DNA from: Patescibacteria group bacterium
GTDB lineage: Bacteria; Patescibacteriota; Microgenomatia; UBA8517
DNA length: 64,000 bases
Reading direction: 5' to 3'
Assembly (NCBI GenBank): GCA_035260845.1
Contig: DATFUL010000002.1
Location: 7,033 to 71,032 of the forward strand
Part shown: one piece after another, positions 1 through 22,725 of the stretch
Numbering within the stretch: the first letter of the stretch is position 1
How the letters are laid out: every line of letters starts with the position of its first letter
Position numbers and translations under genes: made by a program
The notes under the pieces: generated by a model
What the model was told of the DNA's origin: nothing
Seen by the model: only the letters and a program-made list of their open reading frames with translations
Database searches by the model: none

Positions 1-300
1 CAATCAGCATTTAGTGACAGTTCTCCGGAACAGGCAATTGGCAAATTAATCCAACTTGTTATCTGGCTTCTTATTATTGGTGCATCTGTTTATGCACTGA
101 TTAACTTGGTTTTAGCAGGCTACTCTTTTATGGCTGCCGGGGACGACAGTAAAAAAGTCGCAGGGGCTTGGGCAATGATTTGGCAAACAATGTTGGGTTT
201 AGCAATTTCCGCAGGGGCTTTTGTACTGGCTGCGATTTTTGGACAATTAATTTTTGGGGACCCAACGTTTATACTTAATCCAACCATCCCACCACTTTAA
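1..300 (+). CDS. T4SS-type pilin paralog 1 (5'-truncated by window edge; TrbC/VirB2-like two-helix membrane protein)
   Basis: Frame 1 is open from position 1 with no upstream stop in the window. The translation ...LIQLVIWLLIIGASVYALINLVLAGYSFMAAGDDSKKVAGAWAMIWQTMLGLAISAGAFVLAAIF shows hydrophobic helix, a GD(D/K) loop, then a second hydrophobic helix. The four downstream paralogs have the same architecture. Stop TAA at 298-300. Confidence 0.55.
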   Translation, partial: QSAFSDSSPEQAIGKLIQLVIWLLIIGASVYALINLVLAGYSFMAAGDDSKKVAGAWAMIWQTMLGLAISAGAFVLAAIFGQLIFGDPTFILNPTIPPL

Positions 301-677
301 TGAATAATTTATTGACACAAGCACAGAGCGGTTTACAAATTGCACCAAAGGGTGGTTTTACTGGTTTTGGTCCTTTGGGAACTGCGGGAAGCAATGGCGT
401 AAGTGTATTTAGTAAATTTATTTCCTCTATTGTAGGACTAATGACCATAATTGCCATTATTTGGTTTGTGTTTACTTTTATAGCAGGTGCAATTGGTATA
501 ATTGGCGCTGGAAGCGATAAAAACGCACTAGAGGGTTCAAGAAAAAAGATTGTAAATGGAATAATTGGACTTGTAGTTACGGTTGCCGCAATCTTTATAA
601 TTAACTTAGTCGGCTACCTGCTAGGATTCAAAAATATTTTAGATATCGGAACTTTAATTAATTCTTTAAACAAATGA
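300..677 (+). CDS. T4SS-type pilin paralog 2 (TrbC/VirB2-like)
   Basis: 125 aa with the core IGAGSDKNALEGSRKKIVNGIIGLVVTVAAIFII flanked by TM helices. The motif is shared with neighbouring paralogs (GGDKGALEGARGKISSAIVG, GGDKGATEGARNQITAALVG). Start overlaps the previous stop (TAATG). Confidence 0.6.
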   Translation: MNNLLTQAQSGLQIAPKGGFTGFGPLGTAGSNGVSVFSKFISSIVGLMTIIAIIWFVFTFIAGAIGIIGAGSDKNALEGSRKKIVNGIIGLVVTVAAIFIINLVGYLLGFKNILDIGTLINSLNK

Positions 678-991
678 TTACAAATCCGGCTTTGGGTAAT
701 ATTGGCAAACAATCTGGTGTAGAGTTTTTTAAGAACTTTATTCCCGGTCTTATTGGGTTGGGTTTTGTAGCTGGAACAATCATATTTTTCTTTATCTTAA
801 TCATCGGAGCAATTCAGTGGATTACGGCCGGAGGGGATAAAGGAGCTTTAGAAGGTGCGCGCGGCAAAATCTCAAGCGCAATTGTTGGAATTATAATACT
901 CTTCTCACTTTTTGCGGTGCTTGATCTTATTCATATATTTTTCAATATTAAAATTATGACACTTGACATAGGCCCATTGGTAATTCGATAA
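674..991 (+). CDS. T4SS-type pilin paralog 3
   Basis: 105 aa with TM helix, AGGDKGALEGARGKISSAIVGIIILFSLF, then TM helix. ATGA start/stop overlap with the previous gene. Confidence 0.6.
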   Translation: MITNPALGNIGKQSGVEFFKNFIPGLIGLGFVAGTIIFFFILIIGAIQWITAGGDKGALEGARGKISSAIVGIIILFSLFAVLDLIHIFFNIKIMTLDIGPLVIR

Positions 992-998
992 TACATAT

Positions 999-1337
999 AT
1001 GCAAGCTCACCTCGCGCAAATTAATTTACAAAATTTAGGCCAAAACAATCAAAATTTTGGTTCTCTTACAACTCTTACTTTGCCTTCAATAATTTCCGGA
1101 ATGATTAGGGGTGCATTAGTAGTTGCAGCTGTAGTCTTTTTCTTTATTTTAGTTATTGGTGGAATTAAATGGATTGCTTCAGGTGGCGATAAAGGCGCCA
1201 CAGAAGGCGCAAGAAACCAAATAACTGCAGCTTTGGTAGGACTTGTAATAGTCTTTGCGGCTTGGGCTATAGTCCAGCTTATTCAAGTATTCTTTGGAGT
1301 TAATATCTTCAATCTTTCACTTCCGACCGCGGGCTAA
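999..1337 (+). CDS. T4SS-type pilin paralog 4
   Basis: 112 aa containing ...VVAAVVFFFILVIGGIKWIASGGDKGATEGARNQITAALVGLVIVFAAWAIV. Same two-helix topology. Confidence 0.6.
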   Translation: MQAHLAQINLQNLGQNNQNFGSLTTLTLPSIISGMIRGALVVAAVVFFFILVIGGIKWIASGGDKGATEGARNQITAALVGLVIVFAAWAIVQLIQVFFGVNIFNLSLPTAG

Positions 1338-1386
1338 TAGTTAAATTAGGCTTGCCGAAACCTATTCTCTAGATTAGAATTACTTT

Positions 1387-1674
1387 ATGGCTGCATCACT
1401 ACCTCCACAAATAGCAGATTTAGAAGGAATATTCGGTAATATAGTCCAAGCTATCTTGGGTTTTGCTGGTATTGTTCTTTTTATTTTGATTCTTTCCGGC
1501 GGGATTAAATATTTAACCTCAGGGGGTGACCCAAAAGCTACTGAGGCTGCGCAAAAGACAATCACTTATGCAATTGGTGGACTTGTCTTGATTCTTCTTT
1601 CCTATATGATTCTAGTTTTAATCAAAACAATTACAGGAGTGAACGTTACTGAGTTTAAAGTGACATTACCTTAA
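1387..1674 (+). CDS. T4SS-type pilin paralog 5
   Basis: 95 aa containing ...ILGFAGIVLFILILSGGIKYLTSGGDPKATEAAQKTITYAIGGLVLILLSYMILV. Same family signature. Confidence 0.6.
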   Translation: MAASLPPQIADLEGIFGNIVQAILGFAGIVLFILILSGGIKYLTSGGDPKATEAAQKTITYAIGGLVLILLSYMILVLIKTITGVNVTEFKVTLP

Positions 1675-1770
1675 TTTTAAGTTATTTCTTACCCGTGCTT
1701 TTTCAATTTGATAAAATTTCTGTTCTTTATTCATTTTCTTTTCCAGAGATTCAATTAGTTTTCTAATATT

Positions 1771-2358
1771 CTAATCAGTTTTGTTTATAAGCTCAATGAG
1801 TATTTCGTAAGTCAGGTCTTCAGTTTTAATTGAATCTACGGGATTGTAGAGGAATTTAAATGGCTGACTAGATTCCTTTAAATTCCTGTAATTTCCCCTA
1901 AAGTCATCCGGCCTCGAAATCACAGACTTTTTTAAAGCCTCATGCCATTTAACTAAATCAATTTCTAAATCTTTTAAATTGGATCCTGGAATCGATTTTA
2001 AAAACTCATCCTGATAAGACCTTTGAATATCTCCTTTAACTTCTACCAAGCTTGCCCGAGAATAACCCAAAAAATTAATATATTCGGAGGTTGTCTGCCT
2101 TGCAAAACCCTCTTCGATGTTTGCTACGGTTGAGCGTGCAGCATCATCTAGTTGAGCCTTTAATCTGTATTCAAGTTTAGGTAGAGTGTTTGTATATTCT
2201 CGGATTAAAACTCTAAGAAGGCTTGCATTTGACCAGGCAACTAAGAAAATGTAACCGTTTGGAGTATTAGAGACTCGAGAACGCTCAATTGGTTTTGAAG
2301 TTTGGGAAAGTTCGCGTAAAGTTTTGTCGATAAGATCCTGAACGACTTTGTTGGGCAT
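1771..2358 (-). CDS. four-helix-bundle protein (23S rRNA IVS protein / Avd-like family)
   Basis: 195 aa whose core LPKLEYRLKAQLDDAARSTVANIEEGFARQTTSEYINFLGYSRASLVEVKGDIQ matches the E-Y-L-QL-RAA-S-NIAEG-R-S-EF-FL-A-GS-E signature of the four-helix-bundle/Avd family. It carries extra N- and C-terminal extensions. Confidence 0.55.
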   Translation of the reverse strand: MPNKVVQDLIDKTLRELSQTSKPIERSRVSNTPNGYIFLVAWSNASLLRVLIREYTNTLPKLEYRLKAQLDDAARSTVANIEEGFARQTTSEYINFLGYSRASLVEVKGDIQRSYQDEFLKSIPGSNLKDLEIDLVKWHEALKKSVISRPDDFRGNYRNLKESSQPFKFLYNPVDSIKTEDLTYEILIELINKTD

Positions 2359-2413
2359 AATTTAGTCTAAAGTATTTCTAGGGGAGATTAAAGGATCCTA
2401 AAGGAATTTAAGT

Positions 2414-5140
2414 TTGATGCGCTATAATAAGTTCATGCAAAAGCTGTCCAAATTTGTTTATTTTGTTTTTTTTCTTCTCACTTTTGTGTTCTGCTTTTTA
2501 TACCCTGTATTACAACCGGGGGTTGTAAACGCGCAGATTCCTAAATTAAGACTTCCTTGTACAGATGATGGGAAAAATCCTGAATTTAACTCTTTAAGAC
2601 CTTACCAAGCCGCCCCCTGCGGAGACGCAGGTAAAGCTCTTTATTGCAGCAATGATTTAATTTTTACAGAGGATTTTGATTTTGCCGGACAATGTGGTGG
2701 ACAAGCACCTGCTGGAACAGGAAATTTTACTTGTAAATTAAATGGCGGTCTAGGTTCAGGTCTCATTCCTGCACATACTCTTTATGTAACACTCGACAAT
2801 TCACAGTTCCCTATTGAGGGCAACACAGAACAAGTTAAAAATAGCCAAAACAGTAGCGATTCACTTGACGACGCAACTAAAGTTAATGAATACGTTAGCT
2901 GGTATTTAAGTGGCGTTACAGGCCATGCAGAAAATGGGGCTTCAACTAATGATCAAGTCGTAAACTATTCCGGTCCACTTAAAAAGCTTTTACCGGGTGC
3001 TATTCAAGACAATGCCCGCATCCAATCAATTAATAAGGCAACCAATCTTGTAAGATATCCTGAAGAAAGTGACACCCAGGGCCAGGCAGATGCGATAGTT
3101 ACGGGTCCGGAAACGCATAACCAAATTGTAGTTTGTGCCAATAAACAAATATTAGGGATCAATAATCCTTATATTGGTAGCACTCATCCATATCCTTGTT
3201 ATAAAGGTGATGGATCAGCCGCTGCACCGGAAAATGAAATCTATAGACTCAAAACATGGGATAAAGGAACGCTTTCTTTTGCCCGCACAACATCAGAGAT
3301 ATTAAAGGATTTTCTTCGCCTCTATCCCGGTATTACTCAAACAGTAATTGATAATTTGTTTAGTGGGCAAGCTTGGAACAAAAAGACACCTCCGCTTCCT
3401 TGGGACGATGTTGGGGATGGAACCGGCAAACCCTTCGCTTCCTCAAATTTATACTTAAAAGCCTACAACGAGTGGAGGGGTAAAAGCTGCATAATTGTTC
3501 CCTATTTAAACGTTCCTCTTTGTTTTGATAATCCTGGAGTCACCAATGAATATGCCGACCTTTTTTCATATGTTCCACTTGCAGTTACTCCTGATAAAAA
3601 AGGTGCTGAATATGTCGCGGATGTCCAAATAAAACCATCGCAAGGAACTGAATTGTCATCAAAAACTTACGACCCTGCCAGAAATGCTCCTTTATATTTC
3701 GCCCATACACAAGAAACATCAGATTCCTCTAATTTGCTTAATACAACCTATACTCCTAAAGGTTATAAAAGTCAGCCCGTCCCCGCAACAACAGAAAAAA
3801 ATGAATGTAGTATTGTAAACGTTAGAACTAACGCCGGGGACAATTTATTCCCAGGCGACCCTGACGAAATCCAAGTCCCGGGTGTTACTTACACAATAAG
3901 TTCTGTTGAATGCAAGCAAACAGTTAAAGAAAGTCTTTGTATAAAAAATCACAATAACCCAGAATATGACGGAAAAACTATGTGTATACAAAAAACCTTA
4001 GAGTGCAACGCAGAAGTCATAATAACACTTATTACAAATACCAAAACCCCTTCTGCAAATGAACTTTTTAGTTCAACGGTAGCCGATTCTGGTTCCACTT
4101 TTAGGAAAATTTATCCAAAGGTTGGAGAAGGATCCCCAATAAGCTGCATTGCTGATATTCCAACAGTAACCGACGTGACTTATGACTCTAGTAAAAGTCA
4201 GCCACCATTAGGCGGAGATCAAACATTTAAAGTGAGGAATAATCCCAAAGACGGAGCTTCTGGTAGTAATCAACTCACTTTCCCCCATATAGGAAGTGTT
4301 TATGAGTACTTCTTAAAAGGAATTCAGGCTGCGCTAAGACCAAAAGGTTATAGTGATCCGATCGTTGACGGCCAACTTTGTTATACCAATATGTGTACTC
4401 CTGTATCGGGCTTGCCAAAAGCCTCTGGGTCCTGTGCCCTAGGGGGGTCACTAAACCGGATTGGTGTAGTTGCTCCATCATTAAAGGCGGTCGTTGAAGC
4501 CGCTGCTCAAACATACAAAGTGCCACCAGGTCTTATTTTGGGAGTAATGTATGGGGAGGGTGTGTTTAATACAAATTTCTACAAAAATGAGGCCAATGTA
4601 AAAGATTTTGCGTCCTGTAGACCGCTTCCGAACTGTAATGCAAACGCGAGTGAAATTAAAAGTATTGTTCCTTTTATTAAGCCTTATTGGGACAATTTGG
4701 CAAAAGAAATTTTACCGGACTTAAAGAAAATTGATCCCAAAAAAACAAAGGCAGACCCATGTAATTTGTTGGACGCTACTTTTGGCTTGGCGAAAGATTT
4801 GCACGATAATGCAGGTGGGTCAGCATCAATAACAGGAAACTCTTGCTACGGAATCCCTATGACTTCCACAAACCCCGGTTCTTGTTCATGGGACAATAGT
4901 CAATACGAAACAGCAATTAGAGTTTGGGAAATAGGAACCGAGTACGATGTTGCCTCACAAAAAACATGTCTTACAACTCCAGGGACTTGTGAATCAGGGA
5001 TTGCGTCGGGAAGCGACTATACAAGCTCGCTTTGTCCAGGTGGAGATAACTGTGAAACGTTGGGGAGCTCTGGAAACACTAGTCACAATGCCTGTGTATT
5101 TGATGTATCTACAAGTGGTGGATCGGGAAATAAAAAGTAA
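2414..5140 (+). CDS. large secreted cysteine-rich protein with C-terminal lytic-transglycosylase (SLT)-like segment; candidate T4SS cell-wall hydrolase/adhesin
   Basis: 908 aa with an N-terminal signal/TM (KFVYFVFFLLTFVFCFLYPVL). It has many Cys and Gly/Ser/Thr-rich stretches. The segment AAQTYKVPPGLILGVMYGEGVFNTNFY resembles the SLT catalytic region (A-kYgV-p-ll-ai---ES-FNp). Domain assignment is tentative. Confidence 0.35.
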   Translation: MMRYNKFMQKLSKFVYFVFFLLTFVFCFLYPVLQPGVVNAQIPKLRLPCTDDGKNPEFNSLRPYQAAPCGDAGKALYCSNDLIFTEDFDFAGQCGGQAPAGTGNFTCKLNGGLGSGLIPAHTLYVTLDNSQFPIEGNTEQVKNSQNSSDSLDDATKVNEYVSWYLSGVTGHAENGASTNDQVVNYSGPLKKLLPGAIQDNARIQSINKATNLVRYPEESDTQGQADAIVTGPETHNQIVVCANKQILGINNPYIGSTHPYPCYKGDGSAAAPENEIYRLKTWDKGTLSFARTTSEILKDFLRLYPGITQTVIDNLFSGQAWNKKTPPLPWDDVGDGTGKPFASSNLYLKAYNEWRGKSCIIVPYLNVPLCFDNPGVTNEYADLFSYVPLAVTPDKKGAEYVADVQIKPSQGTELSSKTYDPARNAPLYFAHTQETSDSSNLLNTTYTPKGYKSQPVPATTEKNECSIVNVRTNAGDNLFPGDPDEIQVPGVTYTISSVECKQTVKESLCIKNHNNPEYDGKTMCIQKTLECNAEVIITLITNTKTPSANELFSSTVADSGSTFRKIYPKVGEGSPISCIADIPTVTDVTYDSSKSQPPLGGDQTFKVRNNPKDGASGSNQLTFPHIGSVYEYFLKGIQAALRPKGYSDPIVDGQLCYTNMCTPVSGLPKASGSCALGGSLNRIGVVAPSLKAVVEAAAQTYKVPPGLILGVMYGEGVFNTNFYKNEANVKDFASCRPLPNCNANASEIKSIVPFIKPYWDNLAKEILPDLKKIDPKKTKADPCNLLDATFGLAKDLHDNAGGSASITGNSCYGIPMTSTNPGSCSWDNSQYETAIRVWEIGTEYDVASQKTCLTTPGTCESGIASGSDYTSSLCPGGDNCETLGSSGNTSHNACVFDVSTSGGSGNKK

Positions 5141-5182
5141 AACCCCTTTGATTTTTTACCTCAACCCGCTAGAATAAACTTA

Positions 5183-6655
5183 ATGCCTGACGTGTTTAAA
5201 AAATTTCTGTTTTCATTTTTGGCTTTTTTAGTTGTTTTTACTTCTATTACTCCGAACTTTTTATCTGTTAAGGCTGCTAGTAATTCAGCAACGGATTCAG
5301 CTACCTCTACTGCAACTTGGTATAGCCCTGGTCTTTTTGAATTTTACAGTAAAGTATTTGACACAAGTAATAACGATATTTTTGGTGAAAGGTACACTTA
5401 TGCCCAAGTGGTTTGGATTATAGAATCACTTCCCCTTGCAATTTTAGGAATTAGCGCCAGCACTTTTCATGACATACTTCAACAGGTCCAATCAAACCCG
5501 AATGGTACAAGCGTTCTTTTAGACCAAGGTAATAGCCTTGCAAAAATCAATGATCCGTTTACTACAATAATTAGCCAATTTTATTCATCTCCACCTGCTT
5601 CTGGTAGATATTGGCTATCACAAAAAATAAATAACTTTAGTTTGGTTAAAAAAGCTTATGCAGCACCAGCCAACAGCTTTGGCTATTCATCCCTTTTAAT
5701 ATTTGAACCTCTTTGGAGTGCTTCACGCAATATTGCTTACACGTTAATAGTTTTAATTTTATTGGCAATTGCTTTCGCTGTAATGTTTAGGTTAAAAATT
5801 AGTCCCCAGGTGATTGTTACTGTCCAAAGTGCACTTCCAAAAATTGCAACTACGCTTATTTTAGTTACTTTCTCTTATGCGATTGTAGGATTTTTAATTG
5901 ATTTAATGTATTTAATTTTTGGAGCAATAGTCTACGGGATTGGGAACCAATCAGGTGTGTTGGCATCGGGTGTAAGTGCTCCAGATTTATTGAATAATTT
6001 TCTTAACGGAAACTTATTTACAAAAATATTTACGACAGCCGGTACCGGCGGAACTGTTGGAATTGTAGGAGTTGTTGTTGGGCTGATTGCTTTGGTTTTT
6101 ACACCAATAGGGCCGGCTATTATTCCTCTTGTTATAGGTATACTAATTGCTGGAATAATATTTTTTATAAAAACCTTTATTATGCTTGCTCAAACCTACC
6201 TGTCCCTTATTATGAACTTGGTGTTTGGGCCAATAATAATTTTGGCCGAAGCTATTCCATTTATTAAAGCATCGGCTGTGGACTGGATGAGATCGGTTAT
6301 TGCAGATATTTTAGTATTTCTTGCAGTAGGATTACTGTTCTTGGCCGAATCATTGATCAATGGAGCTTTAAGTACGACTGCAAGCACTCCACCCTGGAGC
6401 CCACCCTATTTGGGATTCAATGCCAATATTTTTAAGATAATGATTTGGGTTGGTGTTTGGTCAATCCTACCTAACATCAGATCTATTGTTTACAAAATGA
6501 TGGAGCGGTCAGCTGCAGAGATTCAGTTGCCAAGAGAATTTAGTAATCTGGGTGAAACCTTCCAACGTGGCCTTGGTGAATACACTGGAAATACACAGTT
6601 TAGAGATTCATTTAATAGATGGTTGTCAGGATTAAGAGGTCGTACAGGAACCTAA
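5183..6655 (+). CDS. polytopic membrane protein, VirB6/TrbL-like candidate
   Basis: 490 aa. Signal-like N-terminus (FLFSFLAFLVVFTSITPNFLSVKAAS) followed by at least 6 predicted TM helices (IAYTLIVLILLAIAFAVMF, IATTLILVTFSYAIVGFLIDLMYLIFGAIVYGI, VGIVGVVVGLIALVF, IIPLVIGILIAGIIFFI...). The call rests on position in the T4SS-like locus and topology only. Confidence 0.4.
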   Translation: MPDVFKKFLFSFLAFLVVFTSITPNFLSVKAASNSATDSATSTATWYSPGLFEFYSKVFDTSNNDIFGERYTYAQVVWIIESLPLAILGISASTFHDILQQVQSNPNGTSVLLDQGNSLAKINDPFTTIISQFYSSPPASGRYWLSQKINNFSLVKKAYAAPANSFGYSSLLIFEPLWSASRNIAYTLIVLILLAIAFAVMFRLKISPQVIVTVQSALPKIATTLILVTFSYAIVGFLIDLMYLIFGAIVYGIGNQSGVLASGVSAPDLLNNFLNGNLFTKIFTTAGTGGTVGIVGVVVGLIALVFTPIGPAIIPLVIGILIAGIIFFIKTFIMLAQTYLSLIMNLVFGPIIILAEAIPFIKASAVDWMRSVIADILVFLAVGLLFLAESLINGALSTTASTPPWSPPYLGFNANIFKIMIWVGVWSILPNIRSIVYKMMERSAAEIQLPREFSNLGETFQRGLGEYTGNTQFRDSFNRWLSGLRGRTGT

Positions 6656-6692
6656 ATATTATTTGATATATTCTCTAGTTGAAGATTAAAGT

Positions 6693-9059
6693 TTACTTCT
6701 TCTTACCTATAAAGATCCCCACTTGTTTAGTTAGTCTTTTTTCTGCATCAGCTATAACTTCTCCATTTTTCGCAAGTGGCTTTGTAGTTCTAAATTTCTT
6801 GTTTTCGTCCTCAAAATTCTTGATTACTTCTTCCTCAGTTTTAGGATTGCCATCCGATACTGCTTGTATATTTATTTCAGCAATTCTTGCAGCCGATACA
6901 TCCTCTAGATTGTTTTGGCCAAGATCTGGGTTAAACAATTTAACCACACTATTCAAAACATTGGTTGCAAAAGAGGCACTTTTAATCCTAGCCGCGTTCA
7001 TGTTGTCAAAGACATTTTTAACAACAATTTTATCTTTATCATCACTTATGTCGTATTTGTGCATGGACCCTTTGGTAAGTGTCAAAACATTGTAAACAAT
7101 ATTAAAGTATTTCCACATCTTCTTGAGTCCATTCAATGAGAAATCTTCTAATCTAAAATCAACCTTTATTAAAGCGTCTAGAACACCCCTTTCGTCTCTT
7201 CCAGAAAGCCATTGAATTAGGTCAAAGTTGCCATGAAAATCCCTTTGAAGAGACTCAAAGTTTAAATCTCCCAATCTGTTATACGGTTCTTCTGGAATTT
7301 CTATATTCGTAGGCTCCCCAGTTAAGAGATTTGTTCTAACTCCAGCCGCTGTTCCAAGCCAGGCATCAAAAAGAGATCTTGTTCTTATTTTATCATTACC
7401 CTCACTATCTTTGTCCATTATCTCTTTTCCATCTTCATTAAGCATAGCCACTTGGGAAAAGTCCATAAGGCTTGTAGCCATATCGGGAATTCTACCAATT
7501 AGATCCTTTAGGCCGGAAGGCCTACCGGCAAGGCCCTCTTTAAGGTTCCATAGGTAAACAAGAAACTTTCCAAGATCGTCTGAGGATATAAACTGTCCTT
7601 CCCCAAGTGCCAAAGCAAACTCTCCGTTTTCAAAATACACATAACCTTCAGAGGAGTAAACTCCAGCAGCTCTTAAAAAGGTAGCCGCCAACCATGAAGC
7701 CTCATCAATACTTTCGACTTTTCCTTTACGGTCGATTTTACCTGTACCAACAAGCTCACCTATATACTTTATAAACCCATTTTCCTTCTTAAGGTTCAGT
7801 TTCCCCCTGCCTGCAATATTTCCAAGCTCTGTTACTGGACCTCTTAATTTTTGTATTTTTTCAACTCCATTCTTGATAACTTTATTGGGAGTTTCTACAT
7901 ACTCAACAATTTTTCCCTTTTCATCTTTTCTCGGAACAAAACGTATACCCCGGTTCTCTTGATCTAATGTTTCTGTTATGATCACTTTACCCGTCTTTTC
8001 ATTCTTAACTGGTTTTAGAGTTCTATCAATAGATTTGGTCCATTTTTTCCAATCGCCCAATTGTTCTTTAAGAAATTCCCAAGCTTCATCATATTTCAAA
8101 CCCCTTCTCTCCATTAAGCGTTTAATCATTAATCCCTCTGTTGCCGGTTTATTGATAAATGCCTGCATTTGTTCAGGTGTCTCACTATTAAGCATGGCCA
8201 GATTCCACCATATTGCTTCTTCTATTTGATCACCAAGTTCGTGTAAACGCTTACCTTCTTTGTTGTGTATTGCCTTTTCACGCACAAGTTCTTTTTCGGA
8301 GGGTAAATTTAAAAATTCCTCAATATGTTCGACTCTAAGTTTAGAGGCACCAAGGTGATTTGATTCGGTAAGCCCATTTAAATCATCCCTAAAACGAAGT
8401 CTAATTCCTATTCTCGAATCCAAAATTATCCTAGATTCAAATTCCAATATACCTCTTTCGTAAGCGTTGGCCAATTCTGTTCTATCTTCATCAGTTCCAT
8501 AATTGTATTCAGTTTTATATCCAACCACCTGGCCATTCATCCGAATATCCTTCTGATCAACCGATAGGGCTGTGGATCCAAATTTAGCTTTTCTGGGCTC
8601 TCCAATACCAGTATTTGGATCATAAGATTCAAGCCAACCCCTTTCTTTTAGATCTTCAATTGTCATATTTAAAACTTCAGCTCTATCAATCATTACATCC
8701 AGAACTCTTGTGGGTGTGTAATGGTCAGCCAACTCGCGGGGAATCGTTCCACTCTCAATCCTAGCTTCAAACTTTCTTAAACCGTAGTAAAACTCAGATG
8801 GATATTCAGCATTTGTAATCATTTCCATCCTAAGAGACTCACCACCTCTATACTGCCTACTGTTTGCTTCTTCTAATTGTGGGTCGCCCTCGGGTTCCTT
8901 CTTTTTCCCGGCTGGGTTTGCCATAAATTCTTTAGCTCCAAGCAAATCATTATTCTGTTGTCCTTGTCTTTCGTAATGCCGAGGTTGACTACCCTTGTCT
9001 ATTCCAAAACTGGGATCTTGAGGAGTACCAAATTCATTATTAAAAGGATTATCCGCCAT
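6693..9059 (-). CDS. large hypothetical cytoplasmic protein (about 790 aa) of unknown function
   Basis: Long ORF on the minus strand. The ORF track starts at 9209, but the first 50 residues are low-complexity, so an internal start MADNPFNNEFG at 9059 is preferred. No signal peptide, no Walker A, no HUH motif and no recognisable domain. It is charged and K/E-rich. Confidence 0.6.
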   Translation of the reverse strand: MADNPFNNEFGTPQDPSFGIDKGSQPRHYERQGQQNNDLLGAKEFMANPAGKKKEPEGDPQLEEANSRQYRGGESLRMEMITNAEYPSEFYYGLRKFEARIESGTIPRELADHYTPTRVLDVMIDRAEVLNMTIEDLKERGWLESYDPNTGIGEPRKAKFGSTALSVDQKDIRMNGQVVGYKTEYNYGTDEDRTELANAYERGILEFESRIILDSRIGIRLRFRDDLNGLTESNHLGASKLRVEHIEEFLNLPSEKELVREKAIHNKEGKRLHELGDQIEEAIWWNLAMLNSETPEQMQAFINKPATEGLMIKRLMERRGLKYDEAWEFLKEQLGDWKKWTKSIDRTLKPVKNEKTGKVIITETLDQENRGIRFVPRKDEKGKIVEYVETPNKVIKNGVEKIQKLRGPVTELGNIAGRGKLNLKKENGFIKYIGELVGTGKIDRKGKVESIDEASWLAATFLRAAGVYSSEGYVYFENGEFALALGEGQFISSDDLGKFLVYLWNLKEGLAGRPSGLKDLIGRIPDMATSLMDFSQVAMLNEDGKEIMDKDSEGNDKIRTRSLFDAWLGTAAGVRTNLLTGEPTNIEIPEEPYNRLGDLNFESLQRDFHGNFDLIQWLSGRDERGVLDALIKVDFRLEDFSLNGLKKMWKYFNIVYNVLTLTKGSMHKYDISDDKDKIVVKNVFDNMNAARIKSASFATNVLNSVVKLFNPDLGQNNLEDVSAARIAEINIQAVSDGNPKTEEEVIKNFEDENKKFRTTKPLAKNGEVIADAEKRLTKQVGIFIGKKK

Positions 9060-9305
9060 ACAAAAATTGTAGCACAAAATAGACATGGAGAGTATTGAGT
9101 GGGTTGTGCATAAAAACTTGACTATGGGCCGAAAAAGTCCTACACTCGCGAGCAAGATGGGAAAAGAAAATCCAAAAGGCCTCTTTCGCAAACTCCTTGC
9201 TGCTTCCAACTCTGAAAAAGCGAAGAGTGAGGCTCTAGCTTTAGACGAATTAAAAAAAGAGATCTCGAAGATAAACGCCTCATATCAGAGTTTGACAATC
9301 GAATA

Positions 9306-9815
9306 GTGCCAGATTTGAAAAGAGCAAAAATGGAATTTTTACAACGGGGGCAAGTGCCGGCAGTTTTAGAGCTTTTCAACGATGTTGTTTTAGCTATTGA
9401 ACAAAAAGAGGGAGGAAGAAAACTGGAAAGAAGTGCTAAATTTTCTATTGAATTCTTGGGAGATATTGATAAAAACGATAATTTGTATGCAAACACGGTA
9501 AAATCCAGTTTCGTTCGTTTTTTACATGGCGAATCCGTAAATCAAATAGATGAACTTATAAAAAAGTTTACTGTAGAAATTCACGGTGATAGAACCAATG
9601 ATTCTTATGTTGAGTTTGGAATCTCAGTTTTTCCCGATAATACTTTTGGTTATTCATTTGGTGGTGCATATAATTATAGCGATAGAGCAACTAAAAAAAC
9701 TTTAGACAAAACAAATCTTGAGGTTTTTGCAGAAGATTTGGTAAGTGTTGTTACGAATAGAAAATATATGTATATAATATCACCAGGTCCTTATTTGGAC
9801 TTGAGTGGGCCGTAG
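9306..9815 (+). CDS. hypothetical protein
   Basis: 169-aa ORF with GTG start (alternative ATG at 9330). No recognisable motifs. A 73-aa ORF at 9085..9306 immediately upstream may be co-transcribed or spurious. Confidence 0.4.
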   Translation: MPDLKRAKMEFLQRGQVPAVLELFNDVVLAIEQKEGGRKLERSAKFSIEFLGDIDKNDNLYANTVKSSFVRFLHGESVNQIDELIKKFTVEIHGDRTNDSYVEFGISVFPDNTFGYSFGGAYNYSDRATKKTLDKTNLEVFAEDLVSVVTNRKYMYIISPGPYLDLSGP

Positions 9816-9910
9816 CCTATAAAAAATATTCACTTGTGAAAACACCTCCATATTGCACAGATCCCTTCACGCAGTAAGCTGACATTAGAGTAGTAATACT
9901 TTATCTGTCC

Positions 9911-10954
9911 ATGGAACAACACGCCATACCGCAAAACGTATCTTCGTACCAATTTAAGTTGGTTGGGGACATGACTCTTAAGCAATTTTTTCAACTCGCT
10001 GGTGGAATTTTGGTTGCAATTATTATTTACTCTCTACCACTTTTAGGAATTATTAAGTGGCCTTTTGCAATTCTTTCTGTTCTACTTGGTATTGGCCTTG
10101 CTTTCTTGCCACTTGAAGAACGGCCTTTAGAAAAATGGATATTTGCATTTTTTAGAGCTATTTATGCACCAACTATTTTTTCCTGGCAAAAAGCCGCAAC
10201 TCCTCCCAAATTTTTTCAGGACGAAAGCCCAACTAGTAGTACTCCACAGCAAGATTTGGCACTTAAAAGTTATTTGGGCACAACCGCTCAAGTATCGGGA
10301 GCGCTAGGAAACTTGGAAAAAGCTGAAAATGGATTTTTAGCAAAACTTACCGCACTCTTTTCTGGAATTGTTAATCCTACTCCCGCTACTCAAATTACCC
10401 CTGCCGCTACTCTTGTTCCGGAAAAATCAAAGGAGATGCAAATTCCGGAAACCCAGCCCATAAGAATTCAAGCTAATGCAACACATTTGGTGGTTGAAGA
10501 AAAACCAACTATTCAAACGGTTCAAAGTGAGCTTTCAACAAGCCAGGTTGCACCAATTATTGCAGGGAATGAGATGATTTCTACAAAACAAGCAATGTTT
10601 TCAATTGATGCGGCCCCTCCAAGCCCGCCCAGTCAACCCAATGTTGTAGTTGGCCAAATAGTTGATCAGGATAGGAAAATCGTAGAAGGCGCAATTATGG
10701 AAATTAGAGACTCAATGGGACGCCCAATAAGGGCCTTAAGAAGTAATCGAGCCGGACATTTTATTACGGTTACACAGCTAGATAATGGCCATTACGAAAT
10801 AATTACCGAGAAAGATGGTTATGAATTCGCTGCAGTTAGTTTTGACGCCAACGGCAACTTAATTCCGCCAATTTTGGTTCAAGGAAAACGAATTGCACCA
10901 ATAATTGAACCGGTACCTACCGGAATTGTTAAACCTGCATATTCTATTAACTAA
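9911..10954 (+). CDS. PrgI/VirB3-like membrane protein fused to a C-terminal CarboxypepD_reg-like beta-sandwich domain
   Basis: N-terminus MEQHAIPQNVSSYQFKLVGDMTLKQFFQLAGGILVAIIIYSLPLLGIIKWPFAILSVLLGIGLAFLPLEERPLEKWIFAFFRAI has the PrgI-family pattern: a short tail, the F-K-vG-lTlrQf segment and two TM helices. C-terminus VVGQIVDQDRKIVEGAIMEIRDSMGRPIRALRSNRAGHFITVTQLDNGHYEIITEKDGYEF resembles a carboxypeptidase-regulatory-like domain. It sits directly upstream of VirB4. Confidence 0.5.
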   Translation: MEQHAIPQNVSSYQFKLVGDMTLKQFFQLAGGILVAIIIYSLPLLGIIKWPFAILSVLLGIGLAFLPLEERPLEKWIFAFFRAIYAPTIFSWQKAATPPKFFQDESPTSSTPQQDLALKSYLGTTAQVSGALGNLEKAENGFLAKLTALFSGIVNPTPATQITPAATLVPEKSKEMQIPETQPIRIQANATHLVVEEKPTIQTVQSELSTSQVAPIIAGNEMISTKQAMFSIDAAPPSPPSQPNVVVGQIVDQDRKIVEGAIMEIRDSMGRPIRALRSNRAGHFITVTQLDNGHYEIITEKDGYEFAAVSFDANGNLIPPILVQGKRIAPIIEPVPTGIVKPAYSIN

Positions 10955-10956
10955 AC

Positions 10957-11661
10957 ATGAAGAATTCCTTAACATCTTTAAAAATCCCCAAAATTCCATA
11001 CCTGTCGGTTCCGGATGCACCAATCACTTCAACTACTCAAAGTCATTTACCCATAGCTGACGTCACAAACGACATTGTTATCTATAAAGACGGTGGGGCG
11101 GCGCTTGTTATGGAGTCGACTTCTTTAAACTTTGGACTCTTAAGCGAAAAGGAACAGGCTGCTGTTATTGCCGCCTATGCTGCAATGATTAATTCTCTTT
11201 CTTTTTCTATACAAATTATGGTTCGCACCCAAAGGAAAGATATAAGTAACTATATAACCTACATTGACGAAGAAGCTAAAAAATTAACTCACCCACTACT
11301 ACAAAAGCTTATGGGTGAATACAGGGCCTTTATAATGGACTCGGTTAAAAAGAAAAATGTTCTTGGAAAAAGATTTTATGTGGTTCTTTACCTATCGCCT
11401 CTTGAGCTTGGGGTTGGCAAATCAATTGCGGCAGTCACCAAACGCGGAATCACTCTCCCCTTTACCAAGTCTTACGTAATCAAAAAAGCCAAAATCACTC
11501 TTTATCCAAGACGCGATCATTTAATGCGCCAGGCTGGCCGACTTGGAATTAAATTTAGACAACTTACAACTCGTGAGTTAACTGATTTGTTTTATTCAAT
11601 CTATAACCCCGAGCATCCAGCGGTTAAAAAAGAGCCAGAAGTGATTCTTGAACACAAATGA
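10957..11661 (+). CDS. VirB4/TrbE/PrgJ-family ATPase, N-terminal domain fragment (split gene, part 1)
   Basis: 234 aa. IADVTNDIVIYKDGGAALVMESTSLNFGLLSEKEQAAVIAAYAAMINSLSFSIQIMVRT matches the N-terminal CagE/TrbE/VirB4 domain. The stop overlaps the next ORF start as ATGA. Confidence 0.6.
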   Translation: MKNSLTSLKIPKIPYLSVPDAPITSTTQSHLPIADVTNDIVIYKDGGAALVMESTSLNFGLLSEKEQAAVIAAYAAMINSLSFSIQIMVRTQRKDISNYITYIDEEAKKLTHPLLQKLMGEYRAFIMDSVKKKNVLGKRFYVVLYLSPLELGVGKSIAAVTKRGITLPFTKSYVIKKAKITLYPRRDHLMRQAGRLGIKFRQLTTRELTDLFYSIYNPEHPAVKKEPEVILEHK

Positions 11662-13463
11662 AACCAGACCAACCAACTAACCAACCGACAGTTCAACAAC
11701 AAGGCAAACCTAAAATCGGAAGTCCAAATATCGCTGTTTCCCAAGGATTAAACGTACTGGATGTTGTTGCCCCGCAATCCATCGAGGAAGATTTTGACTA
11801 TTTTAAAATAAACGACGTTTATTTTAGAACAATTTTTATTGGCGGCTATCCAAGATTTGTGGCCCCGGGTTGGCTTGAACCAGTTGTTAATTTTGATTCC
11901 TCCTTAGACATTTCTTTTTACGTTTATCCGGTTGACGGTAAAACCGTGCTTGATGACCTGAGACGCAAAATTGCAGAAATGGAGGCCGAGCTTTCGACCG
12001 ACATTGAGCGCGGCAGAATTGTTGACCCCTCAACTCAAGCAAAACTGGAAGACGCCAGAAATTTGCAAGAACAACTTGTTAAGGGAATCGAAAGATTTTA
12101 TGAATTTAGTTTCTACATTACAATCCCAGCAAATTCAGTTGAAGAACTAAACCATGTAACCAAGCAGATTGAGTCACAACTTGGTTCACTTTTAATTGTT
12201 AGTAAGCATGCGCTACTCGACCAAGAATCCGGGTTTTTGTCCACTGCCCCATTTGGAATAGACAGGCTAAACATTACAAGAAACATGGATACAACCTCTG
12301 TTGCCACAACTTTTCCATTAACTTCAACTGAACTATCTAGTGACCGCGGGGTTCTTTACGGAATAAATTCACAAAATGAATCTTTTATTATTTTTGACCG
12401 TTTTTCTTTGGAAAACGCAAATATGACTATTTTTGCTACAAGCGGTGCCGGAAAATCTTACTTTGTTAAACTCGAAGCCGTTCGTTCTTTAATGACTGGA
12501 ACAGAAGTAATAATAATTGACCCGGAAAGTGAATATAAACCCTTAGCACAGGCTGTTGGGGGTGAATATATTTCTTTTTCCTTTAATTCCCCTGCCAAAA
12601 TTAATCCGTTTGATTTAGCTCAAATTAGAGAAGAGGGTGAAAACCAGCTTGGACAAAAGATTCTTTCACTCCATTCTCTAATGAAGGTTATTATGGGAAC
12701 AATCTCCCCCACCCAAGAGGCCTTACTTGACCGTGCACTTGTCATGACTTACAGGAACAAAGGCATAACCATGGATCCAGACACCCAGGGCAAAGAACCG
12801 CCCCTAATGGAAGACTTGTATAAAACTTTAATTGGCATGGAAGTACCAGATGCTTTGGACCTTGCAGCAAGAATTGAAAAATTTGTCAGAGGTTCGTTTG
12901 TTGGTATTTTTGATAAACAAACAAACATAAACATCACAAATCCGTTTACTGTTTTTTCGGTTAAAGATTTGCAGGATGTTCTAAGGCCCATCGCCATGTT
13001 TATAATCCTAGACTACATTTGGACGAGAGTTAAAAAAGACCTCAAGAAACGCATCTTAATCGCCGAGGAGGCCTGGCAAATGATGAAGTACCCAGATACA
13101 GCCCAATTTTTATGGAGTGTCGTTAAAAGGGCTAGGAAATATTATTTAGGTTTAACAACGATTACTCAGGATGTGGAAGACTTTTTGGGCCAAGATATTG
13201 GTAAAGCAATTGTCACCAACAGTGCCATGCAGGTGCTTCTTAAACAGTCCCCAGCTGCAATCGATAAAATCGGGGAAATATTTTACTTAAGCCAGGGGGA
13301 AAAACAGTTACTCTTAGCAGCAAACGTTGGTGAGGGAATATTTTTTGCAGGCCCGCACCATGCTCCAATTAGGGTTGTTGCATCTGAGGATGAAAACAAA
13401 CTAATTACAACCAAACCACAAGAAATTGCAAAGATAAGTCCAAACGCATATGAAGCAAAATAA
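11658..13463 (+). CDS. VirB4/TrbE/PrgJ-family T4SS ATPase, C-terminal ATPase domain (split gene, part 2)
   Basis: 601 aa. Walker A MTIFATSGAGKSYFVKLE. Walker B/DEAW-type RILIAEEAWQMMKY. Conserved GLTTITQ and sensor region typical of the VirB4 C-terminal domain. Confidence 0.85.
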   Translation: MKPDQPTNQPTVQQQGKPKIGSPNIAVSQGLNVLDVVAPQSIEEDFDYFKINDVYFRTIFIGGYPRFVAPGWLEPVVNFDSSLDISFYVYPVDGKTVLDDLRRKIAEMEAELSTDIERGRIVDPSTQAKLEDARNLQEQLVKGIERFYEFSFYITIPANSVEELNHVTKQIESQLGSLLIVSKHALLDQESGFLSTAPFGIDRLNITRNMDTTSVATTFPLTSTELSSDRGVLYGINSQNESFIIFDRFSLENANMTIFATSGAGKSYFVKLEAVRSLMTGTEVIIIDPESEYKPLAQAVGGEYISFSFNSPAKINPFDLAQIREEGENQLGQKILSLHSLMKVIMGTISPTQEALLDRALVMTYRNKGITMDPDTQGKEPPLMEDLYKTLIGMEVPDALDLAARIEKFVRGSFVGIFDKQTNINITNPFTVFSVKDLQDVLRPIAMFIILDYIWTRVKKDLKKRILIAEEAWQMMKYPDTAQFLWSVVKRARKYYLGLTTITQDVEDFLGQDIGKAIVTNSAMQVLLKQSPAAIDKIGEIFYLSQGEKQLLLAANVGEGIFFAGPHHAPIRVVASEDENKLITTKPQEIAKISPNAYEAK

Positions 13464-15975
13464 AAATCCGCCTTCGGACTTTAATTTTCAAAAAACCACA
13501 GAGTTAATTGAGGCTCTACAGATAATGCTGCCCAAAAAGCTTGGCCTAAGTGATGTTTTGGCAAAAAAAACTCTTAAAACAGATTATTTTTCTTGGAAAA
13601 ACCCCGAACAACTAGAAAAATATACTCTCGAAGTAACGGGTGAGGACAATATTAAATATGCCGAAAGACGTCTAGTTCAGTGGCAAGAAGAGCTTGCTGA
13701 AACTTCCGCAAAAATCGTTGAGCCGCCAAAGACTGTTGTCGAAGCCAGTCTTCCCAATAAAGGTTTAAGAGAACAGCAACAAGCAGATGTAGAAAGGGCT
13801 GAGGCGCAAACTATCGAAAGAGAAGAAAGAATTGGAGTCAAACTCCAAGCCGAACTTGATGCCAAAGTAAAAGCCGCTGCTAACGCAAAAATAATAAGGG
13901 AGTTTAAAGAATCAGTTAAAAATAAAAATGTTTACGCAAAAGTTAAAGAGGCTAACGAGTCCCTACTTAGCCAAGATGACGAAGTTAAAATTAACAATTT
14001 AAAGTCAGAGGCAAAAATAGATCCAGACGGCTTAACAGCACAGGTTGCAGCCGATATAAAAAGCCGCCTTGAACAAGTTGGTGTTCAGGGAGATATAGAT
14101 GGTGCATCGGAATTAACTGCTCAAAATATGGTAGCCGTTTTGGGAGGAAATTCCCCACTAATCGAAGCCGTTATTGCTAAACAGTCAGTTGATAAAGGAA
14201 TGCTTGGGGCTGCGGGAGAGTTTGGGGCCGCACAAAATATAGTTAAAGATTATTCACAGTATCAAGTTGAGAGTTTTATGTTTAGTAAAAACATTGCTGA
14301 AGTCGCTTTCGGTAAAGATGGTAAGGGAATTACGGATCGAATTTTTTCTACTCCTGAATCTATACAAGTTGCAAATATTCCCACCGAAGGCTTTACCCCG
14401 TATGCAGTATCAAAACTAATCAACTCTGAGCCTACAGTCATAGTAAACACTTCTGATTTAGGAACCGGATCTAGTCAGCCAATTTTTATTAATCGTGTAA
14501 GTAGACCGCATTTTGAAGCAAGTTCTCGCCAAACAGACAGATTCGATTTTAGATCCCAAATGTCTTCTTTTAAACCTAGTCCGAGCACCAAGTCCGTAAA
14601 CATAAATGCTCAGAAAATTGGCACACCAAAGATTTCTATTTCAACGGCTCCACTAAGACAGGCTGCTTCTGGAATAACAAAGGTTTTTGCTGATCTTTTT
14701 TCTAAAGGCAAAATTGCAATTAAAGGCTTGGAAAATAGCCAAGGAGGGTTAATTGTTGGTGGAATTGCCGTGGCGGTTGCAGGAATAACTTCGGGTAGTG
14801 CACTTTTAACATCGGTTGGCTTTGGTAGTACTGCTGCCGGTTTTGTTGTAAATCCCGGTAGAGCTCTTAGTGGATCCGCTTTTGGCAATGTTGTTGCACC
14901 AATCTTGGGATTCTTTCATTCGGTTATGAATTTTGTACTTGAAGGGATTGTTCTACCTATCATCCTAGCTGTTCTTTGTGTTCCACTTTTAATAGCACTT
15001 TTTCTTTTTATAATAAATTCGGGTGCCTTAATTGTTCCACCCGGTCAGTCAACTTTAAGTAGCACAAATCCATACATCGAGGTTCGAAAGGTTCCTAACC
15101 CCGGAGGCCAACTTGGGTCGCCGCAAGCAATAACCTATACAATTACAGTCACCGCAAAAAAGGATCTTCTTACTAGGATAAGTTTTAAAACAGATTGCAA
15201 AGCAATCAAAAAAAGTGGCCCTAGTATTGATTGTAGTTCGCTTGAAAAAATTGCTACATCAACAGCCTCGATTGCACCCGGATCACCTTTTTCTTTCAAC
15301 TTTACATCAAACTACGATGCTAAATATCAAGATTCTCTTGTTTCAGACACTATCACAGTTTCTGCAGAGTCTAACGAGGGTGGAAAACTTTCGGAAACAG
15401 GCTCTGCATCGGTTTGTTTTGGAAAATGCCCTCTAAATTGTTTTGATTTTTCCAGCCCGACCTGGAGCTCTGTGCCTAATTTACAATCAAACCTAACCCA
15501 AGCCGCCGCCCAACTTGCATCTCAATACCCAAACTTTGCAGCCAAGGTTTGTGGAGGCGGAACGGTTAAACTTTGTTACACTACAAGTAATCCGACTCCT
15601 GTGGGTAAAGCTGGTATCTGCAATCAAGCAACTTACGCCAAAGATGTGGAACAAAAAGATTGTAATATCAACTTCAATCAGTGTGGAATTAAGTCGACCA
15701 GTGATGCACTGTTTATACTTACGCACGAAACAACTCACCATATTCAAATAATCAATAAAGGGTCTGAGAGGTTGTTTGAACAAAACGTACCACAATCAGA
15801 ATGGCCAATCTGCACATACGGCCTCACTGGAAGTAATCCTTATGAAAGTCAAGCTGAGGGAGATGCTTTGTTTGTGAATCAACACCCATCGTGGGCTTCA
15901 TCTTGTGTTACAAATTACGCAGTACAATACCCTAAACATTACAATTTTGCAAAGAATGTAATGTTTGGACCATAA
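13450..15975 (+). CDS. large T4SS-associated membrane protein (PrgK/TcpG position) with C-terminal HExxH metallopeptidase-like motif
   Basis: 841 aa. N-terminal roughly 440 aa is charged and coiled-coil-like (QQQADVERAEAQTIEREERIGVKLQAELDAKVKAAANAKI). A TM cluster follows (GGIAVAVAGITSG...VLPIILAVLCVPLLIALFLFIINS). C-terminal Cys-rich domain contains LTHETTHHIQ (HExxH) at about nt 15724-15738. Function is inferred from synteny with Gram-positive T4SS hydrolase genes. Confidence 0.45.
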   Translation: MKQNKNPPSDFNFQKTTELIEALQIMLPKKLGLSDVLAKKTLKTDYFSWKNPEQLEKYTLEVTGEDNIKYAERRLVQWQEELAETSAKIVEPPKTVVEASLPNKGLREQQQADVERAEAQTIEREERIGVKLQAELDAKVKAAANAKIIREFKESVKNKNVYAKVKEANESLLSQDDEVKINNLKSEAKIDPDGLTAQVAADIKSRLEQVGVQGDIDGASELTAQNMVAVLGGNSPLIEAVIAKQSVDKGMLGAAGEFGAAQNIVKDYSQYQVESFMFSKNIAEVAFGKDGKGITDRIFSTPESIQVANIPTEGFTPYAVSKLINSEPTVIVNTSDLGTGSSQPIFINRVSRPHFEASSRQTDRFDFRSQMSSFKPSPSTKSVNINAQKIGTPKISISTAPLRQAASGITKVFADLFSKGKIAIKGLENSQGGLIVGGIAVAVAGITSGSALLTSVGFGSTAAGFVVNPGRALSGSAFGNVVAPILGFFHSVMNFVLEGIVLPIILAVLCVPLLIALFLFIINSGALIVPPGQSTLSSTNPYIEVRKVPNPGGQLGSPQAITYTITVTAKKDLLTRISFKTDCKAIKKSGPSIDCSSLEKIATSTASIAPGSPFSFNFTSNYDAKYQDSLVSDTITVSAESNEGGKLSETGSASVCFGKCPLNCFDFSSPTWSSVPNLQSNLTQAAAQLASQYPNFAAKVCGGGTVKLCYTTSNPTPVGKAGICNQATYAKDVEQKDCNINFNQCGIKSTSDALFILTHETTHHIQIINKGSERLFEQNVPQSEWPICTYGLTGSNPYESQAEGDALFVNQHPSWASSCVTNYAVQYPKHYNFAKNVMFGP

Positions 15976-15984
15976 TATAGTTAA

Positions 15985-17678: not shown

Positions 17679-17868
17679 ATTGTGTTAGTTATTATATATT
17701 AACTAGTAGTACTAGTAGTAGAGACGGTTGATAAGTTTATAAAACTCACTGTTTGGGTTTACCTTTCGGATAATATTAGTGTTGATACTAGCCTCAGTAA
17801 ATTGTTCATAACTTTGTGTATAAATATACGCAATCTGTTGATAAGTGCATAAGTATCTAAAATTATCC
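17679..17868. promoter_or_regulatory. dnaA-dnaN intergenic region with degenerate DnaA boxes and AT-rich stretch; candidate oriC / DNA unwinding element
   Basis: AGTGCATAA (about 17844-17852; 8/9 to TGTGNATAA). TTATCCTCA (about 17862-17870; 8/9 to TTATCCACA). GGATAAT (about 17768). Tandem ACTAGTAGT repeats and an AT-rich run TTATTATATATTAACTAG. Confidence 0.5.
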
Positions 17869-19531: not shown

Positions 19532-19548
19532 TCTTCAATTTTAATTAA

Positions 19549-21399: not shown

Positions 21400-21468
21400 C
21401 TTTAATTCTTGGCACTAGATTCTAGAAATTCTATTGTGAAAGCCTCCAAATAGAGTAAAATCCAATAA

Positions 21469-22719: not shown

Positions 22720-22725
22720 CAAAAC

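Follow-up and report, generated by a model that had tools for sequence, protein, structure and literature searches.

A known secretion system, that of type IV (T4SS) in Patescibacteria, is found here to have a previously unrecognised, universally present and hypervariable soluble component. The component was followed up in a stretch of 64,000 nucleotides from a Patescibacteria group bacterium (assembly GCA_035260845.1, contig DATFUL010000002.1, positions 7,033 to 71,032 of the forward strand; hereafter the window), and is encoded by a large gene that lies directly after the VirB6-like gene of the T4SS cluster and on the opposite strand, a position called slot X. The occupant of slot X in the window is referred to as the target. 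An earlier annotation made from the letters alone (the sequence-only reading) had offered three roles for the target, namely a T4SS substrate or effector, a regulator, and a novel accessory protein. That it is a novel T4SS-linked protein is now firmly supported, while a substrate is favoured over a regulator because of the extreme divergence of slot X and its replacement by unrelated families.

Slot X across related loci

In order to avoid circularity, 80 metagenome loci were recovered through VirB4 (74–92% identical to that of the window) and their genes were mapped. In 36/36 VirB4-anchored loci having both the VirB6-like gene and its downstream flank, one large opposite-strand open reading frame (ORF) follows directly, with a length of 515–1235 codons from stop to stop; in one of them, L041, it overlaps the end of the VirB6-like gene. 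Five more loci end before the VirB6-like gene and carry an ORF of the target family at the contig edge, in the same orientation. All loci anchored on the target likewise hold one slot-X gene. Collinear clusters are found in a Candidatus Woesebacteria chromosome (L003) and in a 482-kb contig of a metagenome-assembled genome (MAG; L004), and also in the contigs L005, L009, L010 and L011, which were recovered through family members. In L010 the PrgI-TrsD-VirB4 block is inverted, and the target is still convergent with the VirB6-like gene. By its constant position and orientation, slot X is a component of the Microgenomatia-type T4SS cluster in the operational, synteny-defined sense.

The occupants of the slot were then grouped by BLAST. 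Slot cluster 0, the target family itself, accounts for 17/36 loci, and slot cluster 1, in which not even a 50-sequence profile detects any link to that family, for 14/36. Slot cluster 2 (3/36 loci) is ambiguous, with an HHalign E of 0.007 and a probability of 5.6%, and slot cluster 3 (2/36 loci) has homology with the target family by HHalign (probability 96%, E 2.7e-9, 432 columns). At least two families that look unrelated in sequence thus alternate in slot X. The sequence-only reading had named synteny as a check and absence from syntenic loci as the outcome that would speak against it. The comparison bears the proposal out as to position, and the absence is seen in part: the target family is missing at about 45% of the loci, but the slot is filled there by another protein, which is soluble too and resembles the target in size, orientation and promoter.

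Slot-X proteins of all clusters are soluble, with disordered N-termini that are acidic and Pro/Ser-rich (P/S/Q/G-rich), and in all clusters taken together the second residue is P/A/S/T in 80% and the third D/E in 70%. The motif at the extreme C-terminus is conserved within each slot cluster and differs between clusters. No Pfam domain was found in the ten representatives of slot clusters 1–3 that were scanned.

Identity to the window was used to compare the rates of divergence of the cluster genes. VirB4 is 74–92% identical, TrsD 53–88%, DnaN 47–83%, PrgI 43–79%, the last pilin gene of the array (1387..1674) 48–71%, the conserved cluster protein B908 27–57% and the VirB6-like protein (VirB6L) 28–52%, and slot X is 24–47% identical or undetectable. 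Two close genome pairs were examined as well. In the pair L015/L016, identities are 96% for VirB4, 87% for PrgI, 71% for B908, 54% for VirB6L and 35% for X; in the pair L058/L061, they are 94% for VirB4, 92% for PrgI, 39% for VirB6L and 25% for X. From the component identities and these two pairs, X is the fastest-evolving gene of the cluster. The ratio of nonsynonymous to synonymous substitution rates in X versus VirB4 is not estimable: even the closest distinct pairs of X reach no more than 60% identity, a level at which synonymous sites are saturated. No co-segregation was seen of X family type with similarity in VirB6L or B908, and a cassette model, with the type of X changing together with that of VirB6L or B908, was not supported.

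Avd-like genes in the clusters prompted the consideration of a diversity-generating retroelement (DGR) as the source of hypervariability, which was rejected, as neither template/variable direct repeats of at least 40 nt within 1..20000 nor a DGR-type reverse transcriptase among the ORFs of 300..29392 was found. The only Pfam match related to reverse transcriptase among the ORFs of 300..29392 is a 137-aa RNase H-like ORF at 22726..23139 (RVT_3/RNase_H), which is too small to be a DGR reverse transcriptase.

Several further observations were made on the related loci. Across L012-L091, VirB4 is more conserved than DnaN (74–92% vs 47–83%), an unusually strong constraint for a secretion ATPase. In L010, the ORF in the VirB4 position (3394..5358, 80% identical to that of the window) has intein-splicing and LAGLIDADG homing-endonuclease matches, which suggests an intein inserted in this VirB4. 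L004 (CAZWNZ010000001.1) is labelled Gammaproteobacteria, and it carries the whole collinear Patescibacteria-type cluster with a VirB4 85% identical to that of the window; L002 (DATJGY010000015.1), labelled Alphaproteobacteria, is 3.4 kb long and holds the slot-X and VirB6-like pair only. Both taxonomic labels are probably binning errors.

The target gene, its family and its surroundings

The 838-codon minus-strand ORF at 6693..9209 reported by the sequence-only reading is present, and its suggestion of a start at 9059 agrees with three lines of evidence. The gene callers of NCBI, JGI and ENA independently yield exactly the same product of 788 aa (~90 kDa), full-length homologues align starting from Met-1 of this form, and a conserved extended -10 box lies 6 nt upstream; ATG 9059 is therefore the true start. 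Four contigs, which come from at least three samples, carry the identical 788-aa protein. As its homologues number about 30 among cluster representatives and its synteny is conserved, the ORF is not a chance one, and the target gene is real. It is the sole large minus-strand gene of the T4SS cluster (300..16569), again as proposed before.

The same reading had described a soluble and highly charged protein with no signal peptide, P-loop, HUH motif or recognisable domain, and this description holds. The target protein has 31% charged residues, an acidic pI of 5.5 and 0 cysteines. A hydropathy scan detected neither a transmembrane (TM) segment nor a signal-like N-terminus: the longest hydrophobic run within the first 60 residues is 3, and the maximum 19-residue Kyte-Doolittle value is 0.66 (at most 1.54 in the 28 family members). 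Walker A, searched as [AG]x4GK[ST], is absent from the target protein and from all 28 family members, and HxH is absent from the target protein, with a single, non-conserved HLH in one homologue. No match to the target was obtained in Pfam, NCBIfam, PADLOC or PDB sequences, and nothing consistent was returned when PDB sequences were queried with the 28-sequence profile and all 28 members were searched against Pfam. PHROGs gave two weak, non-specific matches, both with families of no known function (E 0.0019 and 0.059), and no homologues of the target came up by tblastn in 72,556 plasmids and 50,697 phage genomes.

When 1.84 billion cluster representatives were scanned exhaustively with HMMER, only 30 proteins were retrieved. 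Of these, 27 have E < 1e-30, lengths of mostly 680–920 aa, with a few fragments, and identities of 33–52%. Those that bear a name are "hypothetical protein" entries of Patescibacteria MAGs. A profile search of a word-indexed database of 5.8 billion proteins returned at least two proteins. The family alignment comprises 28 sequences. In this alignment, the N-terminal ~60 residues are variable, P/S/Q/G-rich and frequently open with MP[DE]GMSxE, the first half is moderately conserved, and a core at about residues 460–700 is strongly conserved. The core contains the motifs SEGYV, LGEGRxISGDDTGK, KEGxKGRxSGLKDxIGRIPDMA, RSIWDAWLGT, HRLGDLxFxSLxRDFHG and KKxxKYIGIVxNPxxLTKGSxHLY, and the charged residues D495, K498, K507, E508, D533, E591 and K650 are invariant or near-invariant. 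About 24/28 members end in a VG[RK]VxG[KR] tail, which reads VGIFIGKKK in the target.

AlphaFold (AF2) run on the 28-sequence alignment gave a model with a mean predicted local distance difference test (pLDDT) of 83.5 and a predicted template modelling score (pTM) of 0.84, in which residues 1–58 are disordered and the rest forms a compact mixed alpha/beta body. With a 2-sequence alignment the pLDDT was 31 and the model unusable. The sensitive and structure-based searches that had been put forward as a check returned nothing in PDB sequences, nor did Foldseek with the AlphaFold model find a match in PDB (best E 2.4) or BFVD (best E 0.54). The target family is new, restricted to Patescibacteria and not previously described, and the predicted structure is probably a new fold.

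The starts of the cluster genes were compared as well. Four diverged loci have TG-n-TA-n-AAT, 6 nt and then ATG at slot X. Of the slot-X starts, 67% have TAnAAT-N5-8-ATG and 45% have it extended by TGn. The same signature is found at 45% of p194 starts, 35% of VirB6L starts and 21% of B908 starts, almost never with the TG extension, and at 0–8% of most other cluster genes; the TG-extended form does not exceed 7% in any non-X class. At sigma-70 promoters transcription normally starts about 7 nt past the -10 box. Given that the box here is only 6 nt before the ATG, slot X would be transcribed from its own promoter as a leaderless mRNA. An intrinsic or bidirectional terminator was not found in the 37-nt gap between the convergent VirB6L and slot-X genes.

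The small divergent ORFs that had been noted at 9085..9815 are both present, at 9085..9306 and 9306..9815 on the plus strand. The first most likely starts at ATG 9157, a codon preceded by a TTGACT-17-TACACT promoter. L003 has a single small gene of 218 aa behind the same promoter as the split pair of the window. Relative to L003, the small gene appears to be split by a frameshift near an A7 run inside GAATTAAAAAAAGAG (~9250-9265). Identical split sequence occurs in three further contigs from other samples (L006-L008), which makes a single assembly error improbable; a pseudogene, translational coupling or homopolymer slippage could lie behind the split. When 9060..9160 is compared with L001 and L003, a compact bidirectional promoter of ~100 bp is seen to be conserved in DNA, with flanking proteins that are ~35% identical; its sides read TTGACa-17-TACACT-CGCGrGCAAG-ATG (small gene) and TGnTAnAAT-6-ATG (slot X). 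This would leave both divergent genes with hardly any 5' leader. That the conserved upstream block is a tRNA or Rfam RNA was considered and rejected, as no match was found and the block is explained by the divergent promoter and the start of the small gene. A consistent small partner gene, such as a chaperone or immunity gene, was not supported, the divergent small genes being of different kinds and frequently missing.

Between slot X and the PrgI-like gene lies a gap that is a hot spot of insertion, occupied by YcaO and nitroreductase genes (resembling those of ribosomally synthesised and post-translationally modified peptides) in L004 (7840..9833), by a TM protein resembling Pycsar effectors (PycTM-like) in L003 (8073..8597), and at several loci by Avd/23S-IVP-like genes. 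In L010, genes for HEPN and nucleotidyltransferase proteins are found close to the gap (5360..5680 and 36..1157).

The cluster of the window is a monoderm-type, MPF_FATA-like Patescibacteria T4SS, as described in PMC12102498, and its features are collected in Table 1. It is proximal to the replication origin, with dnaN and dnaA directly after p194. No recognisable coupling protein (T4CP), VirB8 or relaxase was detected in the cluster by Pfam and NCBIfam scans, and the VirB6-like protein has no hidden Markov model match. B908 is probably extracellular, given its N-terminal anchor or signal and its cysteines, and the 841-aa protein is probably a cell-wall hydrolase (VirB1 analogue), given the domains of its homologues. 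Cysteines are confined to the two presumably extracellular proteins, B908 and the 841-aa protein (13 in the latter), with zero in all other cluster proteins. Avd-like (23S-rRNA-IVP) four-helix-bundle genes recur at varying positions inside related T4SS clusters: besides the copy in the window, they are found in L004 (5666..6037), L005 (9483..9860) and L010 (2238..2609), and two each in L023 and L041.

Table 1. Coordinates of the T4SS cluster and adjoining features in the window
Feature	Position	Strand	Basis or remark
Array of four small VirB2-like T4SS pilin genes	300..1674	+	
Avd/23S-IVP-like gene, 195 aa	1771..2358	-	only other minus-strand gene of the cluster
B908, 908-aa conserved cluster member	2414..5140	+	N-terminal hydrophobic anchor/signal; 29 cysteines
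VirB6-like polytopic membrane protein	5183..6655	+	topology and position; signal-like N-terminus and ~5-6 TM-like segments
Slot-X gene, coding sequence with stop, 788-aa soluble protein	6693..9059	-	ORF, gene calls, alignment, AlphaFold model
Extended -10 element TGcTACAAT of slot X	9066..9074	-	6-nt spacer 9065..9060 before ATG 9059
Sigma-70-type promoter TTGACT-17-TACACT of divergent small gene	9118..9146	+	block conserved in L001, L003
N-terminal piece of divergent small gene, 49 codons, coiled-coil-like	9157..9306	+	TAG overlaps GTG of next ORF
Second piece of small gene, 169-aa ORF	9306..9815	+	between slot X and PrgI-like gene; no known domain
PrgI/VirB3-like membrane protein	9911..10954	+	
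TrsD/TraC-like protein	10957..11661	+	related to VirB4 N-terminal domain
VirB4-type ATPase	11658..13463	+	TraG P-loop / AAA_10
841-aa protein	13450..15975	+	homologues at other loci bear Amidase_2 or Peptidase_M23
p194, 194-aa single-TM protein	15985..16569	+	final cluster gene before dnaN
dnaN	16566..17678	-	
dnaA	17869..19248	-	

Possible roles of the slot-X protein

Patescibacteria T4SS are described in PMC12102498 as having no relaxase and usually no nearby coupling protein, with an unknown substrate, and they are thought to export proteins or to have some other role. The T4SS was reported to be essential for epibiotic growth of Southlakia epibionticum, a Saccharibacterium (PMC10633639). 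Among the roles considered for slot X, a dedicated, polymorphic T4SS substrate or host-interaction protein is the one favoured, tentatively and at somewhat less than even chances. The protein evolves faster than the extracellular parts of the machine and is replaced by unrelated families while the ATPase stays >90% identical, which points to a translocated substrate or effector; divergence of this kind behaves like host-driven diversifying selection. In such a mechanism, the slot-X protein would be synthesised in the cytoplasm, with no Sec signal, and would be recognised through its disordered N-terminus and/or its conserved C-terminal tail. VirB4 would then push it through the VirB6-like channel and the pilus, and it would reach the host bacterium and act there; we infer both the export and the action on the host. 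A more far-reaching version, in which slot X is the long-sought T4SS cargo, consisting of polymorphic, host-manipulating proteins with a new fold, from one family or from several analogous ones and one per genome, that are injected into the host and diversify in an arms race, is a real possibility, though somewhat less probable than the favoured reading.

Several points weigh against a substrate. Its status as one is read from sequence and context, and to be present once, at the same place in every cluster, is commoner for a machine subunit than for effectors, whose number and location usually vary. The neighbourhood encodes no coupling protein that could recruit a substrate from the cytoplasm, Pfam shows no known signal domain for T4SS in the slot-X protein, and no immunity-like gene is consistently paired with it, the divergent small genes being too variable for that. 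The positive charge of the C-terminus is modest: the last 30 residues carry a net charge of +5 in the target and -3 to +6 in the family, mostly +1 to +3, with many homologues at +1 to +2 and some negative. The essential T4SS cluster of Saccharibacteria has no equivalent gene. The leaderless signature without TG is enriched at p194, VirB6L and B908 too, so it is no mark of a substrate as such.

The single copy beside the VirB6-like gene, fixed in position and orientation at every VirB4-anchored locus that includes that gene and at every target-anchored one, fits better with a second role, in which slot X is a cytoplasmic subunit or adaptor, i.e. a non-ATPase docking or gating platform on the cytoplasmic face of the VirB6-like channel (and of VirB4/TrsD). 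Here X would functionally replace the missing coupling protein or a VirB8-like scaffold, and its divergence would reflect co-evolution with VirB6L. The lack of a recognisable T4CP and VirB8 in the cluster (cf. PMC12102498), the high divergence of VirB6L itself (28–52% identical) and the compact, soluble and confidently folded predicted protein are all in its favour. Saccharibacterial VirB6-like proteins are ~1000–1088 aa long with extra soluble ARM-like domains, as compared with ~490–570 aa for VirB6L here; as the Saccharibacterial proteins are longer and their cluster has no separate X, X could be the split-off equivalent. On the other hand, X is less conserved than all other components, extracellular ones included, and apparently unrelated X families swap while VirB4, TrsD and PrgI stay 60–96% identical. 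The absence of co-segregation of X type with VirB6L or B908 similarity argues against tight co-evolution, and with no Walker A/P-loop, X cannot supply ATPase-driven energy. An adaptor is the main rival of the substrate reading and is held somewhat less probable.

Much less probable is that slot X has nothing to do with secretion and is a passenger, for example a regulator, a protein acting against phages or against defence, or other fast-evolving cargo, in a recombination-prone gap near the replication origin (oriC). The neighbouring gap between X and PrgI is indeed a variable insertion site (L004, L003, Avd-like genes), and X has its own promoter and orientation; yet the same size class, strand, VirB6L junction and promoter architecture at 36/36 loci would be unexpected for a passenger, and X has no PADLOC match, no detected DNA-binding domain and no plasmid or phage homologues.

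The least probable reading, to which little credence is given, is a novel nucleic-acid processor (a factor for DNA uptake or one like a relaxase, so far not recognised) that would link DNA to the T4SS for transfer to or from the host: almost all Patescibacteria T4SS clusters are without a relaxase and PMC12102498 leaves open that very different ones await discovery, X is, like relaxases, large, soluble, free of a Sec signal and located beside transfer genes, and its core charged residues are nearly fixed, but there is no HUH, Rep_trans, Pfam nuclease/primase/topoisomerase or PDB nucleic-acid-enzyme fold match, no oriT-like repeat was seen (no direct repeats of at least 40 nt within 1..20000), and such enzymes are normally far better conserved than the 25–35% seen between close relatives. 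A PD-(D/E)xK nuclease formed by D495/K498/K507/E508 was specifically rejected, because these D..K/KE residues lie in predicted helices and not in the beta-strands of a PD-(D/E)xK core, and no fold match was obtained.

Always present, Sec-independent and fastest-evolving, slot X is the most obvious candidate for the cargo of the T4SS or for a part that selects it. If it is the cargo, its alternating unrelated occupants would amount to a catalogue of epibiont effectors. The T4SS of the ultra-small Patescibacteria are widespread, origin-adjacent and essential for epibiotic growth in the single lineage tested, and slot X gives work on them a concrete protein with a confident model that matches nothing in PDB or among viral structures.

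Comparison with known systems

The cluster shares its gene layout with the MPF_FATA-like clusters described near dnaA/dnaN in Patescibacteria (Quinonero-Coronel et al. 2025, PMC12102498; Southlakia epibionticum SEML1_0006-0019, Wang et al. 2023, PMC10633639), i.e. the VirB2-like array, PrgI/VirB3, TrsD, VirB4, the divergent VirB6-like protein and the cell-wall hydrolase, and like them it lacks a relaxase and a coupling protein. The available parts of these two papers make no mention of a large soluble gene on the opposite strand; their cluster analyses cover only genes with T4SS profile matches and leave unannotated genes uncharacterised. Unlike the window, the Saccharibacteria cluster has no slot-X gene, and its VirB6-like proteins are twice as long.

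Similar in size to type IV coupling proteins (VirD4/TcpA) and likewise placed beside channel genes, X was nevertheless rejected as one, as it has no Walker A/B, N-terminal TM anchor, T4CP/AAA Pfam match or fold match. A conjugative HUH relaxase was rejected for want of HxH in the target, of a Pfam/NCBIfam match and of a PDB fold match, and a VirB8/PrgL-like scaffold for want of a TM segment and of any NTF2-like or other PDB match with Foldseek. As regards the accessory proteins specific to the MPF_FATA class (PrgF, TrsJ, Gbs1347/1350, Orf17), which PMC12102498 recognises by CONJScan/MacSyFinder profiles, the Pfam and NCBIfam scans of X yielded no match.

With cytoplasmically made T4SS effectors (Agrobacterium VirE2/VirF; X-Tfe), X has in common that it is soluble, T4SS-encoded and devoid of a Sec signal, that it diverges strongly between strains and that its extreme C-terminal tail is conserved and often basic. 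It differs from them in that there is no VirD4 to read a signal, exactly one copy is present at a fixed position and no known toxin fold is seen. Unlike the X-Tfe toxins of Xanthomonas/Stenotrophomonas, X has no XVIPCD (Pfam) and no consistent adjacent immunity partner, and an X-Tfe antibacterial toxin was rejected on these grounds, no Pfam domain being found and the neighbouring small genes not being consistently paired.

A further likeness, by description only, is to extended VirB6 proteins (the C-terminal part of TraG in the F plasmid and in integrative and conjugative elements, the Rickettsiales paralogues and the Saccharibacterial ~1000-aa proteins), in which a large, variable soluble module is genetically tied to the VirB6 channel; unlike in these, the soluble module here is a separate gene on the opposite strand. 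In F/SXT systems, the corresponding soluble module is the specificity-determining and partly translocated part.

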